64,000 nt of DNA from Minisyncoccota bacterium (GCA_965204115.1 OZ241963.1:121475-185474); one strand, 5' to 3'. Numbered from the stretch's first letter, positions 1 through 9,855 are shown. Translations and numbers: made by a program. Notes: generated by a model from the sequence alone, not told the origin.

Positions 1-382
<382 letters not shown>

Positions 383-408
383 AGGAAACCAAAGACCGTT
401 TTTTTATT

Positions 409-589: not shown

Positions 590-700
590 TCTGGTGATGA
601 AACCGGAGGGGAAACACCTGTTCTCATTCCGAATACAGCCGTTAAGACCTCCAGGGGCGATGGTACTGCTTTATGCGGGAGAGTAGCTCGTCGCCAGTAC
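590..700 (+). rRNA. rrf: 5S rRNA
   Basis: CTGGTGATG...CACCTG..CCGAATACAGCCGTTAAGAC...GATGGTACTG...GAGAGTAGC...CGTCGCCAG. The terminal helix pairs ctggtgatg with cgtcgccag. Conserved CCGAA/GTTAAG/GAGAGTAG elements are present. It lies ~200 nt downstream of the 23S end. Confidence 0.85.
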
Positions 701-2099: not shown

Positions 2100-2654
2100 T
2101 CAACTTTCTTTGTGTGCGAAATAGGTGAAGAAAATGACGAGGATGAAGGCGGTGAGTGACATCAGGGGGATGGTGATGTAGCCGAGCTCTATGAAGTAGT
2201 ATTCGGAGCAGGATTTTGACATCCCAACCGCAACACAGTCAGTGGTGATAATGCTGTAGCGGGTGTGGAGCTGCTGAATGAGGTAATGATAGGAGGCAAT
2301 TATTGTGCCTATGCCTGCAAGGGCGTAGATATAGATCTTGTTGCGGAAGTCTTTTCGTTTGAGTATAAGGAATAGGAGGATGACGAGTGGGAACATGAAA
2401 ATTCGTTGATACCAGCAGAGTGTGCAAGGGAGGAAGTGATAGCTGTAGGTATAGATGAGGGGGCCGACGGTTGCGAAAAGCGCAGTTCCGAATGCGCAGA
2501 TCAGTCCGTAGCGGCTGAGGCAGCGCTGTATCGGTGTAGTTATTTTTTTTAATACTGGGATCTTGCTGTAACGCAATATCAGAAACACCACCAAAAAGAT
2601 ATGTGCGCTGACTGTTGCTATCGCTAAGAGTTTTGAGTAAAGGAATACATCCAT
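2100..2654 (-). CDS. dsbB: Disulfide bond formation protein B (DsbB/BdbC family) membrane oxidoreductase
   Basis: Four-TM hydrophobic profile with the LCWYQR motif and a second Cys pair (C..C). Start taken at the internal Met MDVFLYS; the long N-terminal ORF extension overlaps the divergent neighbour. Confidence 0.55.
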   Translation of the reverse strand: MDVFLYSKLLAIATVSAHIFLVVFLILRYSKIPVLKKITTPIQRCLSRYGLICAFGTALFATVGPLIYTYSYHFLPCTLCWYQRIFMFPLVILLFLILKRKDFRNKIYIYALAGIGTIIASYHYLIQQLHTRYSIITTDCVAVGMSKSCSEYYFIELGYITIPLMSLTAFILVIFFTYFAHKES

Positions 2655-2718
2655 GTTTTTTAGTATAGCATGAAGCTGCGTTGTAGAGCATGTTGATAAA
2701 GTGCTATAGTATAAGTAT

Positions 2719-3678
2719 ATGAAGATTCTCGTCACTCGCCGTATTCCTGATGTCGGGCTGTCGCTCTTGCGAGAGCATGAGATTGAGTTGCAAGTGCTTG
2801 AAAAAAAACAGCTGCGGAAAAGTGCGCTCATTGCAGCATTAAAAGCGGAGGCGTATGACGGGATGATTGCGCTCCTGACGGATACTATAGATGAGGAGGT
2901 GCTGAATGCTGTTGGCTCGCAGATGAAGGTAATAGCAAATTATGCGGTCGGGTTTAATAACATTGCGGTAGAGAAGGCGAAAGAGCGGGGGATTGTAGTG
3001 ACCAATACCCCGGGCGTGTTGACCGAGACCGTTGCGGAACATACCTTTGCGTTGATCTTTGCGGTGGCGACCCGCGTCGCGGAGGCGGATGCTTTTGTGC
3101 GGGCGCAAAAGTTTACCGGTTGGGAGCCGGAGCTGCTGCTCGGGGTTGATTTGCTGGGGAAAACGCTCGGCATCATCGGTGCGGGGCGTATTGGCTCTCG
3201 CGTCGCTGAGATTGGAAAAGCGATCGGTATGGAAATTGTCTATCATGATATGCAGGAAAATACTTTGCTGGAGGAAAAGACAAACGCTGACTACTGCGGC
3301 AGTCCTGAAGAAGTGCTGCGTCGCTCATCAGTCGTTTCAGTACACTTGCCGCTTACTGATGCAACCCACCACTGCATTGACGCGGACAAACTGTCTCTCA
3401 TGCAGTCAGATGCAATTCTTATAAATACTTCGCGGGGGCCGGTTATTGATGAGGAAGCGTTGATTGCTGTTTTGCGTCAACGGAGAATTTTTGGTGCCGG
3501 GCTTGATGTGTTTGAACATGAGCCGAAGGTGCCTGTCGCACTTAGAAAGTTGCCTAATGTGGTTTTGACACCGCATACTGCGTCGGCAAGTATTGCTACC
3601 AGAGGAAAAATGGCAAAAATAGCAGCGGAAAATGTCATAGCAGTTCTACACGGCGGCAAAGCCCCTAATGAGGTCTAG
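2719..3678 (+). CDS. D-isomer-specific 2-hydroxyacid dehydrogenase (glyoxylate/hydroxypyruvate reductase-like)
   Basis: GIIGAGRIGSRVA Rossmann motif, catalytic SVHLPLT...H...INTSRGPVID...TPHTAS pattern. 319 aa. Confidence 0.85.
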   Translation: MKILVTRRIPDVGLSLLREHEIELQVLEKKQLRKSALIAALKAEAYDGMIALLTDTIDEEVLNAVGSQMKVIANYAVGFNNIAVEKAKERGIVVTNTPGVLTETVAEHTFALIFAVATRVAEADAFVRAQKFTGWEPELLLGVDLLGKTLGIIGAGRIGSRVAEIGKAIGMEIVYHDMQENTLLEEKTNADYCGSPEEVLRRSSVVSVHLPLTDATHHCIDADKLSLMQSDAILINTSRGPVIDEEALIAVLRQRRIFGAGLDVFEHEPKVPVALRKLPNVVLTPHTASASIATRGKMAKIAAENVIAVLHGGKAPNEV

Positions 3679-3684
3679 TGGAAG

Positions 3685-3981
3685 GTGCCTCAGAGTGTGT
3701 GCTATACTATACAGATAATGATTAGAATGCGATCCACAAAGAGTAAGCAAGGAGGTCGACGGTCACAACACGGTGTGGCTTCATCTGCATATACCACCGA
3801 TGAGGACGGCGAGGTGCGGCAACGGCATCGGGCAAGTCGGCGGACAGGGAAGTATCGAGGTCGGTCGGTTATGGATGTCACCCGTGAGGTGAAAAAAGCG
3901 GAGAAGCGGGTAGGGCAAACGCAACAGGGCAGCGATGATGAGGAGAAGAAAACCGTTGAGCAAGTAGCGGCACCAAAATAG
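3685..3981 (+). CDS. Small basic/acidic hypothetical protein (possibly stress-associated)
   Basis: 98-aa ORF (alternative starts at 3715/3724). N-terminus is Arg/Lys-rich, C-terminus acidic. A TATACT -10 lies immediately upstream. Confidence 0.4.
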   Translation: MPQSVCYTIQIMIRMRSTKSKQGGRRSQHGVASSAYTTDEDGEVRQRHRASRRTGKYRGRSVMDVTREVKKAEKRVGQTQQGSDDEEKKTVEQVAAPK

Positions 3982-4079
3982 TGCTGTTTTATAGGGTATA
4001 CTGGTAGTATATCCCCAAAAAAGTAGATAACCTGTTTACACCTATCAGGAAGGATATATACTTATATTGTACATTCTGT

Positions 4080-4970
4080 ATGACTACCTCAAGACGCGAC
4101 GCACGCATAGTGATCATTCAAACTCTTTTTGAGAGCGACTTCCACCAGCGGGATCCGGATGGTGCGCATATGGTGGCAATGTTTAATGCGACTGCCCGGG
4201 AACATAACCCGGCCTTGGTGGATAATGAATATGCGAAAAAGATACTGACTGGTATTGCCAGCAAGTACTATGATATTAACGCTATTATTGAGAAGGCAGC
4301 TCCTGACTGGCCGCTGGATAAAATAGGCAGTGTAGACCGGAATATTCTGCGTTTGGGGGTGTTTGAGCTGCTGTTTGGTAAGGATTTGGAGGTGCCGGGG
4401 CGCGTGGCACTAAATGAGGCAATTGAGATTACGAAGATGTTTCTGGGAGACGGGGCGCGGCGTTTTGTTAACGGTGTGCTTGGTTCAATTTATACCGAGG
4501 TGAAGGATCCGGCGGAAGATGACTATGTGCCGAAGAAAATGCAGCATAAAAAGTCGGTCGGCGGTGTCATCTTTAGAATTGATGAGGGCGGCTCTCCGTG
4601 GTTTGCGTTTGTTCATGATGTTTTCGGTAAGTGGACGTTATCAAAAGGTGGGTTGGAAGGTGAGGAGGCGATAGACGCAGGGCTGAAGCGAGTCATTAAA
4701 GATGAGATCGGCATTGATATTGAGGTTATAGAGAAGATTGGTTCAAATGCGTATAAGGCGCATCCGCCGACTGGTCCGGTATTGAAAGAGGTTACCTATC
4801 TTCTTGCTAAAACTGATGATGATCTGCTCACCCTCAAGGAGACGGAAGGGTTAGATGAAGCAAAGTGGTTCTCCTTTGATGAGGCAAAGAAACTTTCTTT
4901 TTATCCGGATTTGCGACAGATTATTTTGGATGGTATGACGAAGGCGATTCAGGTGTATGCGAAAGGATAA
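4080..4970 (+). CDS. nusB: NusB (transcription antitermination factor) N-terminal domain fused to a NUDIX hydrolase-like C-terminal domain
   Basis: N-terminal ~150 aa resemble NusB (RRDARIVIIQTLFESDF...AIIEK...DRNILRLGVFELLF...ALNEAIEITKMF). The C-terminal ~140 aa carry a Nudix-like box, GGLEGEEAIDAGLKRVIKDEIGI. Confidence 0.7.
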   Translation: MTTSRRDARIVIIQTLFESDFHQRDPDGAHMVAMFNATAREHNPALVDNEYAKKILTGIASKYYDINAIIEKAAPDWPLDKIGSVDRNILRLGVFELLFGKDLEVPGRVALNEAIEITKMFLGDGARRFVNGVLGSIYTEVKDPAEDDYVPKKMQHKKSVGGVIFRIDEGGSPWFAFVHDVFGKWTLSKGGLEGEEAIDAGLKRVIKDEIGIDIEVIEKIGSNAYKAHPPTGPVLKEVTYLLAKTDDDLLTLKETEGLDEAKWFSFDEAKKLSFYPDLRQIILDGMTKAIQVYAKG

Positions 4971-5670
4971 TACACAAAACGATAGTATTGTGCAGAAGAT
5001 GGAGGACACCATCGGCTATCGTTTTACTGATAAAAATGTAATACTGCAGGCGCTCACACATCGTTCGTATACGAATGAACACCCGGGGACGGCTCATAAC
5101 GAGCGACTTGAGTTTTTGGGTGATGCGGTGCTTCAGTTTACCGCTACCCGTACGCTGTACACGCTGTACCCTGATGTTGCAGAAGGGGAGTTGAGCGTGA
5201 GTCGCTCATTGCTGGTAAAAACAGAGTTTTTACTCCAAGCGGCAGAGAAATTGGAAATACCGACATGCCTGCGGGTATCAAGCGGGCAGAAGAAGGATTT
5301 AAACACGGTGAGTACAAGCTTATTTGCTGATGCGGTAGAGGCGATTATCGGTGCGATATACCTTGATGGCGGGCTTGAGTCGGCAGAACAATTTATTTTT
5401 GATAAAGTGCTGGTTGATATAACGGGATACCTGTCGCAGGTGCCGCTGCAGGACGCAAAAACGGCCTTGCAGGAATATACCCAGCAGGAATTTGACATAA
5501 CACCGGAGTATGTTGTGTTAGATGAATCCGGACCTGATCACGCCAAAACTTTCACCATCGGGGTTAAGGTCGGGGATGCGATGCATGCGCAGGCAGTTGG
5601 GAAATCAAAGCAGGAGGCAGCGCAAAAAGCCGCTGAAGAAACGCTGAAAAAGTACAAGAAGGGGAAGTGA
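4957..5670 (+). CDS. rnc: Ribonuclease III
   Basis: LQALTHRSY, ERLEFLGDAVL signature and a C-terminal dsRBD (...GPDHAKTFTIGVKV...GKSKQEAAQKAA). Overlaps the nusB stop by 14 nt. Confidence 0.9.
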   Translation: MRKDNTQNDSIVQKMEDTIGYRFTDKNVILQALTHRSYTNEHPGTAHNERLEFLGDAVLQFTATRTLYTLYPDVAEGELSVSRSLLVKTEFLLQAAEKLEIPTCLRVSSGQKKDLNTVSTSLFADAVEAIIGAIYLDGGLESAEQFIFDKVLVDITGYLSQVPLQDAKTALQEYTQQEFDITPEYVVLDESGPDHAKTFTIGVKVGDAMHAQAVGKSKQEAAQKAAEETLKKYKKGK

Positions 5671-7076: not shown

Positions 7077-7095
7077 CCATGCGAAGCGGCGAGCG

Positions 7096-7129
7096 ATAAA
7101 AAACGGACTGACTTTCAGTCCGTTTTTTC
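7096..7129. terminator. Bidirectional intrinsic terminator (AAAAAACGGACTGA-ctt-TCAGTCCGTTTTTT)
   Basis: Palindromic hairpin flanked by an A-run and a T-run. Confidence 0.6.
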
Positions 7130-7159
7130 ATTGCTAAAAAATGTTACAATAGTAGGTGT

Positions 7160-9322
7160 ATGCATCTTAAAGAATTGCGTATTGAAGGATTTAAATCGTT
7201 CGGCAAATCAGTGGTGTTGTCGTTTCCGACAAATATCACCGGCATTGTCGGTCCGAATGGGTCGGGAAAGTCTAATGTCGCGGAGGCATTTCGTTTTGTG
7301 TTGGGAGAGCAGTCCATGAAAAGCATGCGCGGGAAGCGCGGTGAAGACCTGCTCTTTAACGGCGGTACCGGGGCGAATCGGGCGAATCGGGCGAAAGTGT
7401 CTATTGTATTTGATAACACTGAACGCTTGCTCAACAGTTCGTTTGACGAGGTGTCTGTTTCCCGTACTGTGTATCGCAACGGAACGAATGAGTATGCGAT
7501 TAACGGTACTCAGGTACGGCATCGGGATGTTATTGAACTGCTGGCTAAGGCGAATGTCGGATCTACCGGGCATCATATTATCTCGCAAGGCGAGGCGGAT
7601 CGTATTTTGCACGCGACAAATGAAGAGCGCCGAGAGATGCTGGAGGACGGTCTTGGTTTGAAGCTGCTGCAGTATCGGCGGGCGGAAGCGGAGAAGAAAC
7701 TGCAACGCGCACAGAAGAATATCGCTGAAACTGATCTTATCCTTCGGGAGACCGCGCCGCACTTGCGCCACCTGAAGCGACAGGTTGAGCGGTATGAGAA
7801 GGCAAAAAAAACACGGGAAGAATTGGTGCGATTGTATGCGGTGTACCTTGCGTATGAAACGGCATATATCGCGACTGGCAAGTGTGCGGCGGAAGGTGCC
7901 TTTGATTCGTTGCAAGAGAGGATTGCCGTTATTAAAAAAGATATTGCGGGAGAGAGGCGAAAGGCAGGAACAGAGCGGACAGTAGATGTGGCGCGAAAAC
8001 AAGAGGAATCTCTCGCGGAGGCACTTCGCGCTGTGCGGGATAAGTGGGATATGGTAACCCGGGAAATCGGACGACTCGAGGGGGAGCGAGCCGCACTTGA
8101 AAACCTCACGAAGGAGGGCGAGCGTGAGCCAATAGATCGTACAGCGCTGCTGCGACTTTACAAAGAGGTGCAACGCCGCTTTATGGGAGAAGATGATTAC
8201 CCTGCGGTTATCACCTATGCGCTGCAGCAGTTAAAGACGATACTTGGAAGTAAAAGCGCGGTGCAGGAAGGGGCAGAACGGCGACTCACCGCTTTGCAGA
8301 AGAAGTTGAAGGAGCGGCAGGAGCAAATGAGCAAATTGCAAGAGCAGGAGCGGCAGCATCTCTGTGAGCAGGAGGCACTGTATAAGCAGAGAGAGCGGGA
8401 AATCACTGCCACACGACAGTCAGAGAAAAAAATACTCGCGCTGGTGACAGAAAAAAACTCCCTTGAGCAGGAACTTTCTGAAGTGCAGCACTCACTGGCA
8501 CTTTTTCGGGAGGATGAGGAGAATATACGGCGGGAAATGGTTGAAGGGACTGTGCTCGTCGGCAGTGCGATTAATAACTATAAATCGGTCGCTGTTCCGC
8601 AGGAAATACAAGATGAAGACCGAGCAAAACAAAAAGAACGGCGGCGTGTGTTAGAGCGAAAAAAGATTGAGCTTGAAACGGTAGGGACCGGTGATAGTGG
8701 CGAAGAAAGGCATGCTGAATATCGAGAGGTTTCCGAACGGGTTGATTTTTTAAAGAAGGAAAAAGAAGATCTGTTGCGCAGTATAAAGGATTGCGAAGAA
8801 GGTATCGCTGCGATACAGCAAGAGGTAGAAGCGCGGTTTAAAGCAGGCGTGGAGGCGATTGATAAAGAGTTCGGCCGATTTTTCAAGATTTTATTCGGCG
8901 GAGGGAAGGCGGGGGTTGTTGTTGAAAGACGAACCATTGCCAGAGAAGATGAGGACCCGGAAGTGCGGGTGGGTGTGGCGGTGCGGGTGGCACTGCCGCG
9001 TAAGAAAATTAACGCTCTGGAACAACTTTCAGGTGGTGAGCGTGCGCTGGTGTCTATCGCTTTGCTGTTTGCTATGTCGCAGGTGACCCCGCCGCCATTT
9101 TTAATACTGGATGAGACCGATGCGGCGCTGGATGAGGCGAATTCACGGCGATACGGTGATATGATAGAGTCATTAGCAAAACAGTCGCAGTTGATTTTGA
9201 TTACCCATAATCGTGAAACTATGCATCGAGCAGGAGCGCTATATGGTGTGACGATGGGGATGACCGGTATATCAGCGATACTTTCTGTACAGTTTGATGA
9301 GGCAGTGCGTGTGGCAGAATAG
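7160..9322 (+). CDS. smc: SMC-like chromosome-segregation ATPase, short (720 aa) with no recognisable hinge
   Basis: N-terminal Walker A GPNGSGKSN in the typical SMC head context (LKELRIEGFKSF). C-terminal signature LSGGERALVSIALLFA and Walker B ILDETDAALD. The middle is coiled-coil-like, and no G-rich hinge motif was seen. Confidence 0.75.
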   Translation: MHLKELRIEGFKSFGKSVVLSFPTNITGIVGPNGSGKSNVAEAFRFVLGEQSMKSMRGKRGEDLLFNGGTGANRANRAKVSIVFDNTERLLNSSFDEVSVSRTVYRNGTNEYAINGTQVRHRDVIELLAKANVGSTGHHIISQGEADRILHATNEERREMLEDGLGLKLLQYRRAEAEKKLQRAQKNIAETDLILRETAPHLRHLKRQVERYEKAKKTREELVRLYAVYLAYETAYIATGKCAAEGAFDSLQERIAVIKKDIAGERRKAGTERTVDVARKQEESLAEALRAVRDKWDMVTREIGRLEGERAALENLTKEGEREPIDRTALLRLYKEVQRRFMGEDDYPAVITYALQQLKTILGSKSAVQEGAERRLTALQKKLKERQEQMSKLQEQERQHLCEQEALYKQREREITATRQSEKKILALVTEKNSLEQELSEVQHSLALFREDEENIRREMVEGTVLVGSAINNYKSVAVPQEIQDEDRAKQKERRRVLERKKIELETVGTGDSGEERHAEYREVSERVDFLKKEKEDLLRSIKDCEEGIAAIQQEVEARFKAGVEAIDKEFGRFFKILFGGGKAGVVVERRTIAREDEDPEVRVGVAVRVALPRKKINALEQLSGGERALVSIALLFAMSQVTPPPFLILDETDAALDEANSRRYGDMIESLAKQSQLILITHNRETMHRAGALYGVTMGMTGISAILSVQFDEAVRVAE

Positions 9323-9329
9323 TGTTTGT

Positions 9330-9764
9330 ATGCAGCAAAGGAGACAGCGCACTGGTGCTACAACTTATGTGCCAAGGAAGAGTGATTATGTCCTGGAAAT
9401 TCGCAGATCGTCTGCCGGACTTGGGCTCTTTACTGAAAGCCCGATACCGCGGGAAAAATTTATTATTGAGTACTATGGTCCGATACTCACCCGTGAACAG
9501 GCAGATGAAAAAGGTGGCAAATATCTTTTTGAAATCAATAGCAGGAAAGTGATAGACGGCTCTCCCCGCTACAACACTGCCCGCTACCTTAACCATTCCT
9601 GCCGACCTAACTGTGAGACCGATGTCGTGAAAGGGAGGGTGTATATCTATGCTAAGCGCAATATTAAGCCTGGCGAAGAACTTACTTATGACTACGGAAA
9701 AGAGTATATTGATGACTTCATCAAGCCATACGGCTGTAAATGCCCAAAATGTCTTGCAGGTTAA
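9330..9764 (+). CDS. SET-domain protein (protein-lysine methyltransferase fold) with post-SET Cys cluster
   Basis: GLGLF...IIEYYG...YNTARYLNHSCRPNCE...ELTYDYG and a C-terminal CKCPKC. Start chosen at MQQRR, just after the smc stop. Confidence 0.7.
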   Translation: MQQRRQRTGATTYVPRKSDYVLEIRRSSAGLGLFTESPIPREKFIIEYYGPILTREQADEKGGKYLFEINSRKVIDGSPRYNTARYLNHSCRPNCETDVVKGRVYIYAKRNIKPGEELTYDYGKEYIDDFIKPYGCKCPKCLAG

Positions 9765-9855
9765 GGTGTTGATAGTAGGGTTATACACATTGTTCACAGG
9801 GTGTGCGTAATGGTTCAAAGACACGCGTTCGGTTGTGCGTGGTACCATACCAATA

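Follow-up and report, generated by a model that had tools for sequence, protein, structure and literature searches.

The DNA analysed here is a 64,000-nucleotide stretch from a Minisyncoccota bacterium (GCA_965204115.1 OZ241963.1:121475-185474), referred to below as the window. Near its start, on the plus strand, lies an ATG-initiated open reading frame, nusB-nudix (4080..4970; 296 a.a. plus stop), recognized from the ORF list, from Pfam matches to both NusB and NUDIX, and from its full-length homologues. The encoded protein consists of an all-helical NusB domain (residues 1-141, 4080..4502, +), delimited by Pfam, TIGR01951, PDB matches and the AlphaFold2 helices; a flexible linker (residues 142-158, the VKDPAEDDYVPKKMQHKK region, 4503..4553, +), marked by low pLDDT, variable length and weak conservation; and a Nudix domain assigned to the NUDT2/Ap4A-hydrolase type (residues 159-296, 4554..4967, +) by Pfam, a PDB profile search, a domain model and Foldseek. 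The end of the frame shares 14 nt with the start of rnc, which encodes RNase III (4957..5670, +; TIGR02191, 224 bits), as a sequence-only reading of this DNA had noted. Upstream is an rpmF-like gene for ribosomal protein L32 (3727..3981, +), which has a weak Pfam Ribosomal_L32p match (22.6 bits) and is also a gene call on a matching public contig (L081, coordinates mapped to the window). A promoter-like site, TTTACA-16-TATACT (4035..4062, +), ends 18 nt 5' of the nusB-nudix ATG and matches 10 of 12 consensus positions in a consensus scan; it is weak evidence for a promoter, and the site counts of the promoter/terminator scan in the nusB-nudix region were no higher than those in shuffles.

With TIGR01951 and PF01029 as the tests for the NusB family and PF00293 as the test for the Nudix superfamily, both halves of the protein passed. 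Pfam NusB covered residues 7-138 (E 2.7e-26, 93 bits, cut-off 23.1), and the NCBIfam equivalog TIGR01951 nusB scored 108.2 bits versus a cut-off of 88.35. Pfam NUDIX (PF00293) covered residues 183-282 (E 7.4e-11, 42.6 bits, cut-off 21.1). The sequence-only reading, which had proposed an N-terminal NusB followed in frame by a Nudix-like domain, was thus right about both domains. Since both pass curated thresholds and the arrangement recurs in hundreds of diverged homologues, the two-domain protein is far beyond chance.

The fusion is also intact in nearly all relatives that were followed. Both Pfam domains are present in 117 of the top 120 homologues from the database search, which are 42-92% identical to the window protein and mostly 290-310 a.a. 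long. Scanning a single genome for each GTDB species brought up 597 relatives, and we examined the best 80, whose alignments span query residues ~1-295. A single ORF runs over both domains in 79 of these 80 loci, which come from independently assembled genomes, and split nusB / nudix versions did not occur among them. The identical protein is recorded on two public contigs, where its neighbours are also the same, and the junction of the NusB and Nudix halves displays no break in base composition. Artefactual joining of two genes through a frameshift, against which a check had been advised, or through loss of a stop codon or chimeric assembly is therefore refuted by the homologue architecture, the genome scan and the public-contig identity, and retains a negligible probability. 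The PDB profile search returned no chain matching both halves. The architecture had been called uncommon, which stands for bacteria generally but not within this lineage, where every full-length relative found shares the fusion.

The suggested survey of its taxonomic distribution gave a uniform result: all 80 of the best genome loci belong to Patescibacteria, mostly labelled as Paceibacteria/Parcubacteria lineages (Paceibacterota, Parcubacteria, Kaiser-, Giovannoni-, Nomura-, Zambryski- and Ryanbacteria). These taxon labels are the submitters' own, and many bulk-submitted MAGs among the 80 are labelled 'Saccharibacteria'. The cluster at 92% identity includes MCY4576845.1, named by NCBI 'transcription antitermination factor NusB [Candidatus Kaiserbacteria bacterium]', and the host is best explained as a Kaiserbacteria-like Patescibacterium. 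When the Nudix half was used by itself in an exhaustive profile search, it produced 62 clusters (50% identity) at E <= 1e-30 and 744 at E <= 1e-10; the complete top matches were mostly proteins of ~290-305 a.a. with the domain at ~150-295.

The gene order is conserved on the 3' side. In 77 of the 80 loci rnc follows nusB-nudix immediately on the same strand, and in two of the three exceptions the contig ends there. Of the 80 loci, 64 contain an L32 (rpmF) homologue, counted as present irrespective of position. In the window, 23S and 5S genes lie ~3.4 kb upstream of nusB-nudix; no rRNA or tRNA was found within the ~4-kb flanks of 16 related loci, and since the adjacency is not conserved, we set linkage to the rRNA operon aside as evidence.

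We next consider the NusB half. Residues 2-147 matched NusB structures exclusively in the PDB profile search, the best being those of T. maritima (2e-30), Aquifex (2.5e-28) and E. coli (3e-25), and the AlphaFold2 model contains the seven helices of the NusB fold (residues 5-141) at a pLDDT of ~90 or more. Residues were mapped through an alignment with the Aquifex protein, with residue roles taken from PMC3177189, and counted over 195 family members. In the NusB-NusE-BoxA structure, AaF122 stacks on BoxA-U8 and is required for antitermination, AaE81 is the acidic residue that reads U8, and EcY18, the nusB5 site, is an aromatic residue buried in the S10/NusE interface (PMC3177189). The counterpart of AaF122, F129, is present in 195/195 fused proteins, and that of AaE81, D86, in 194/195; F17, corresponding to EcY18, is Phe in 185 and Tyr in nine of the 195. 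The N-terminal R5 and R9 are each found in 193/195. At the sequence level the NusB half is thus expected to be functional, with the conserved contact residues pointing to binding of both S10 and BoxA.

As for the type of the Nudix half, its profile matched Aquifex Ap4A hydrolase (3i7u, 5e-13) and Chlamydia CT771 (4ilq, 3e-11) in the PDB, and further Thermus Ap6A hydrolase Ndx1 (1vc8), human NUDT2 (3u53) and C. elegans Ap4A hydrolase (1kt9); Dcp2 came next after these Ap4A-type enzymes. Foldseek gave 591 PDB Nudix matches at E <= 0.001, headed again by 3i7u (TM 0.78/0.86, rmsd 2.3 Å) and followed by mycobacterial MutT1/Rv2985 ('Nudix diadenosine polyphosphatase'), CT771, NUDT2 and Ndx1. The window protein shares the motif W-x-x-[PS]-K-G (WTLSKG) with NUDT2-type hydrolases, and its lysine, K189, is kept in 194/195 fused proteins. 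A tyrosine after the Nudix box (Tyr87, 1XSC numbering) is the proposed specificity determinant of ApnA hydrolases (PMC5389931); Y225, which aligns with the corresponding Tyr in ELNYVA of NUDT2, is present in 195/195. Both its profile and its predicted fold place the Nudix half with the NUDT2-type Ap4A/ApnA hydrolases and not with RppH or MutT. For RppH, NF001936 scored 16.9 bits versus a cut-off of 118 and NF001937 13.2 versus 139, and RppH structures appeared in Foldseek from rank 39 down, at 14% identity; for MutT (8-oxo-dGTPase), NF008044 scored 14.1 bits versus a cut-off of 148. An earlier suggestion of a possible link to alarmone metabolism fits the finding that Ap4A hydrolases are the closest relatives.

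The Nudix box itself deviates at a position of consequence. The sequence-only reading had described it as near-canonical, and the motif it quoted is present (G190-x5-E196-x7-R204-V205-I206-K207-D208-E209-I210-G211-I212; 4647..4715, +; read from the sequence and evaluated by family statistics). Compared with the canonical G-x5-E-x7-R-E-U-x-E-E-x-G-U, however, V205 (codon gtc, 4692..4694, +) replaces a Glu and D208 replaces the first E of EE. A comparison of wild-type and mutant PDB sequences, in which E58A turns RETQEE into RATQEE, places residue 205 at E58 of NUDT2. This Glu coordinates metal, and E58A abolishes the activity of NUDT2 on PPP-RNA (PMC8616924). Since V205 occupies the position whose change inactivates NUDT2, hydrolase activity of the window protein is doubtful.

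We evaluated how the box varies across 195 distinct fused proteins. Most of its positions are strongly constrained: Gly at 190 in 189, Glu at 196 in 165, Arg at 204 in 174, Glu at 209 in 192 and Gly at 211 in 169, with position 208 being Glu in 142 and Asp in 35. Position 205, on the other hand, is Glu in 66 (34%), Val in 64, Lys in 28, Ile in 15 and Ala in 14, and the fully canonical box remains in 51/195. When residue changes were counted by parsimony on a quick neighbour-joining tree, the residue class at position 205 changed at least 38 times, versus twice for E209, once each for K189 and Y275, and never for Y225. The pocket residues D180, W185, K189, Y225, W263 and Y275 are 98-100% conserved whatever residue stands at 205. 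Stand-alone relatives of the same subfamily (140-160 a.a.) behave differently: the Glu is kept in 23/26 of them versus 66/195 fused proteins (Fisher p = 1e-7), and the canonical box in 23/26 versus 51/195 (Fisher p = 9e-10). These conservation patterns indicate that one catalytic position is relaxed specifically in the NusB-fused lineage, with the putative ligand pocket strictly retained.

In the clade of the window protein, defined as 32 proteins at >= 58% identity, position 205 is Val, Ile or Ala in 32/32. The same 32 proteins all keep G190, E196 and R204, and 31 of them keep E209 and either Asp or Glu at 208. Since these residues are retained and the identity of the Nudix half is 0.68 versus 0.73 for the NusB half, the Nudix domain is not decaying.

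The predicted structure bears on how the two halves are joined. In the full-length AlphaFold2 model (mean pLDDT 89.8), helices 5-141 are followed by an alpha/beta/alpha sandwich at 155-295, with the pLDDT falling below 50 at linker residues 147-152. Each domain is confident by itself, yet the pTM of the whole model is 0.50, indicating that the modelled domains have no fixed mutual orientation; modelled alone, the Nudix domain reached a pLDDT of 93.9 and a pTM of 0.85. The linker, ~17 a.a. in the window protein, ranges from 16 to 42 a.a. across the family (median 27) and shows the weakest conservation of any segment of the protein. The tether exits the C-terminal helix of NusB, which supplies F129 to the BoxA site, and would for this reason keep the Nudix domain close to the bound RNA.

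The reading that we favour, at a probability of roughly one half, is that the protein is a working NusB carrying a tethered, binding-dominant adenine-polyphosphate module, where observation covers the architecture, its spread, the gene order, the fold assignment and the residue patterns, and the ligand, the loss of catalysis and the regulatory effect are what we infer. The NusB half would have its usual two partners, ribosomal protein S10 and the BoxA element of nascent rRNA. The Nudix half, of NUDT2-type descent, would hold a nucleotide-polyphosphate pocket formed by a lysine, two tyrosines, the box Arg and the Glu/Asp-Glu pair, and in the window lineage it would act as a binder of an adenine-polyphosphate group that it hydrolyses slowly or not at all. 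The hydrophobic residue in place of the metal-coordinating Glu, together with the retained pocket, suggests such a mainly binding module. Candidate ligands are an Ap4A-type dinucleotide or the 5'-triphosphate or Np4-capped end of the rRNA leader. With the tether at the C-terminal helix of NusB, part of the BoxA site, ligand binding might be coupled to antitermination and to processing by RNase III, the processing theme being suggested by the conserved co-operonic RNase III gene. The acidic character of the Nudix domain (mean net charge -7) disfavours extended RNA binding. A further step, that the antitermination complex of Paceibacteria is wired to dinucleoside polyphosphates, either by reading Ap4A or by recognizing a 5'-ppp/Np4A leader cap that canonical-box lineages would remove, is tentative and somewhat improbable as it stands.

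R204, E208/D208, E209 and E196 are strongly conserved, and binding alone would not obviously need them, an observation that runs against a binding-only reading. Residual or alternative catalysis in the Nudix half is possible on this pattern, and the fully canonical box in 51/195 fused members suggests that the ancestral, perhaps general role may have been hydrolytic.

NusB binds BoxA close to where the rRNA transcript begins, and this proximity is one reason to consider an active tethered pyrophosphohydrolase or decapping enzyme for RNA 5' ends, RppH- or NUDT2-like, acting co-transcriptionally. Such an enzyme would turn the 5'-ppp or Np4-capped end of the BoxA leader into 5'-p, allowing clearance of the leader once RNase III has cut. 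The structurally close NUDT2 does convert PPP-RNA to P-RNA (PMC8616924), and the operon with rnc, the canonical boxes of a quarter of the family and a small clade of RNase E proteins bearing copies of the same Nudix subfamily are all in keeping with it. Against these points, the window clade uniformly lacks the Glu essential to the PPP-RNA activity of NUDT2, position 205 is unconstrained across the fused family, and the domain is outside the RppH family by both profile score and fold rank. The RNase E-attached copies are moreover degenerate, and the Nudix domain is acidic. We consider this alternative unlikely, at the same time the best placed of those weighed here.

Somewhat less probable again is that genome streamlining joined a housekeeping Ap4A/ApnA hydrolase to NusB, with independent activities and co-expression as the sole benefit. 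The closest relatives are indeed free-standing Ap4A hydrolases, the linker is flexible and leaves no fixed domain interface, and the genomes are small, the gene being carried on contigs of 0.6-0.85 Mb. A housekeeping hydrolase would nevertheless be expected to keep its catalytic Glu, which the stand-alone enzymes largely do and the fused ones largely do not. In addition, the two halves have stayed joined throughout a very deep clade (to ~40% identity), with no splits in 80 loci, which argues for selection on the physical linkage.

A purely structural role, in which the Nudix half is a protein-binding subunit of the antitermination complex without any ligand, is improbable to a greater degree. 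It has a precedent in E. coli SuhB, an inositol monophosphatase whose enzyme fold serves in the rrn antitermination complex (PMC6614801); Nudix domains without enzymatic activity have been described (PMC5389931), and the relaxed catalytic Glu would be compatible with such a scaffold. Against it stand the residues that hardly vary: K189, Y225 and Y275, which in Ap4A hydrolases line the nucleotide-polyphosphate pocket, and the metal-binding E209 and R204. A scaffold would have no need of them.

The favoured reading, a functional NusB with a tethered binding module, can be set beside known systems. Canonical NusB is a stand-alone protein of ~140 a.a. Relative to NusB of E. coli, Aquifex aeolicus and Thermotoga maritima, the window protein has the same all-helical fold and an equivalog-level score and keeps the U8-stacking F129, the U8-reading D86, the S10-interface F17 and the N-terminal Arg residues; it differs by an additional ~17-a.a. 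linker and a 138-a.a. Nudix domain at the C-terminus. Its gene lies between rpmF and rnc, unlike nusB in other bacteria, which is found in neighbourhoods such as ribH-nusB. NUDT2-type hydrolases (NUDT2, aq_158 (3i7u), CT771, Ndx1 and the C. elegans enzyme) are the best profile and fold matches of the window domain, and share with it W-x-x-[PS]-K-G, Y225, the C-terminal aromatic Y275 and most of the Nudix box. The differences lie in the metal-coordinating Glu of R-E-U, which is Val in the window domain and variable in the fused family; in the first Glu of the EE pair, which is Asp; in the loop Glu of NUDT2 and the Aquifex enzyme, at which the window domain has an invariant Gly (G257) and then D259; and in the fusion to NusB.

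Other proteins offer partial parallels. The RsmB/Sun 16S rRNA methyltransferase provides a precedent, with a NusB-like fold ahead of an enzyme-type domain that acts on rRNA. RsmB models match window residues 28-160 weakly (40 bits versus a cut-off of 319), and RsmB has a methyltransferase at its C-terminus, whereas the window protein has a Nudix domain and its N-terminal half passes the true NusB equivalog model. NrtR, which binds ADP-ribose and regulates DNA binding, is a precedent for a ligand-sensing Nudix domain joined to a nucleic-acid-binding module, in that case a winged-helix DNA-binding one. Its Nudix domain is not closely related to that of the window protein (Foldseek rank 26, 16-17% identity), and the window protein instead pairs its Nudix domain with an RNA-binding antitermination factor. 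Mycobacterial MutT1/Rv2985 (a diadenosine polyphosphatase) likewise has two domains, and its Nudix domain falls in the same ApnA-type structural neighbourhood (Foldseek ranks 2-10), but there the Nudix domain is N-terminal and its partner is a histidine phosphatase; the NCBIfam MutT1 model scored 22.5 bits versus a cut-off of 475. RppH, whose Nudix fold works on the 5' ends of RNA, is a functional analogue of the decapping alternative, and the window protein is not a member of that family.

A full-text literature search on NusB in combination with Nudix returned no description of the fusion, and the Nudix-clan survey PMC5389931 never mentions NusB. The component families are known; the combination is best classed as a NusB with an appendage derived from ApnA hydrolases, for which we found no published description. 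NusB is a core rRNA antitermination factor and normally single-domain, and in an entire, very large uncultivated lineage it is instead a two-domain protein. The added module derives from hydrolases of Ap4A, a stress alarmone, one of which (NUDT2) also trims 5'-triphosphate RNA. An invariant pocket, combined with a catalytic Glu that is relaxed only after fusion, suggests that nucleotides or RNA 5' ends may be sensed at the transcription complex where rRNA is made and processed by RNase III, in organisms with minimal regulatory repertoires. The system would bear on the role of Ap4A and Np4A caps in bacteria and, if the tentative wiring to dinucleoside polyphosphates is true, this NusB would be the first Nus factor into which a module for nucleotide sensing or decapping is built.

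Several minor observations concern related proteins. Among the five best-scoring 'stand-alone' close relatives, three have non-canonical boxes, and one of these three, P0125, begins within linker-like sequence. The best-scoring 'stand-alone' relatives may be fragments of fused genes, and we do not count them as evidence of gene fission. As Rosetta-stone evidence, the RNase E-Nudix fusion was treated as weak support, given its tiny clade and degenerate copies. Finally, databases hold thousands of nusB-nudix proteins that are auto-named 'NusB', an annotation gap in which the plain NCBI name conceals the second domain.

The Nudix subfamily of nusB-nudix, the 296-aa NusB-Nudix fusion encoded at window 4080..4970 (+), also occurs on ribonucleases. 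C-terminal copies of it are found in one small RNase E clade among the database proteins (P0196, P0270 and P0271), whose members combine S1, RNase_E_G and thioredoxin-like domains in 1018-1167 aa. P0196 carries two copies, P0270 three matched stretches and P0271 at least one. The Nudix boxes on these proteins are degenerate; one example is RTVKGE, with WILSTN replacing WTLSKG, the motif of the window protein. The copies look like a non-catalytic module on a 5'-end-sensing RNase.

Six further database proteins (P0187, P0251, P0254, P0238, P0203 and P0158) place the subfamily in other architectures. Among them are a 379-aa protein with Sigma70_r4, a DnaA_C helix-turn-helix and Nudix, and a 608-aa Fic-Nudix protein. 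The longer proteins of this group have HATPase_c/STAS-like/cold-shock or NB-ARC/TPR regions N-terminal to NusB-Nudix, and these may be merged gene calls.

Within the NusB-Nudix family, the linker equivalent to window residues ~141-160 takes two forms. In the window's clade it is short and reads KDP(A/N)E(D/E)…PKK…KKS. In most other Paceibacteria members it is longer, and the pattern GEPGKDE…KKK…(I/V)P(F/Y)E(E/Q)MP(I/V)E(K/R) recurs.

Downstream, rnc is followed by two ORFs without a Pfam match, as well as by genes for an SMC_N/AAA_23-type ATPase (720 aa, ~window 7208..9370, +) and a bacterial SET-domain protein (144 aa, ~window 9378..9812, +), after which come frr (RRF) and mreB. The positions of the ATPase and SET-domain genes were taken from 7095..9257 and 9265..9699, respectively, of L081, a public contig locus encoding the identical nusB-nudix protein. 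On the other side, the window begins inside a 23S rRNA gene, of which it includes the 3' end (1..385, +; Rfam, 384.9 bits). A 5S rRNA gene follows (590..699, +), and nusB-nudix lies ~3.4 kb downstream of these genes on the same strand. No such rRNA adjacency was seen in the ~4-kb flanks of 16 related loci.

Upstream of nusB-nudix is an rpmF-like gene (window 3685..3981, +) with a weak Ribosomal_L32p match (22.6 bits), whose product ends in a long, charged tail (…KKAEKRVGQTQQGSDDEEKKTVEQVAAPK). Its start is placed at window 3727 in the public gene call, which is likely correct and gives a product of 84 aa. The 3' end of a promoter-like TTTACA-16-TATACT (window 4035..4062, +) is 18 nt upstream of the nusB-nudix ATG, with no obvious Shine-Dalgarno sequence in between, together suggesting that the transcript has a very short leader. 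The count of promoter-like sites around nusB-nudix is not above the shuffled expectation. Farther upstream, on the strand opposite to nusB-nudix, a 243-aa ORF (window 2100..2831, -) seems to encode a membrane protein that spans the bilayer several times and contains a number of Cys residues.
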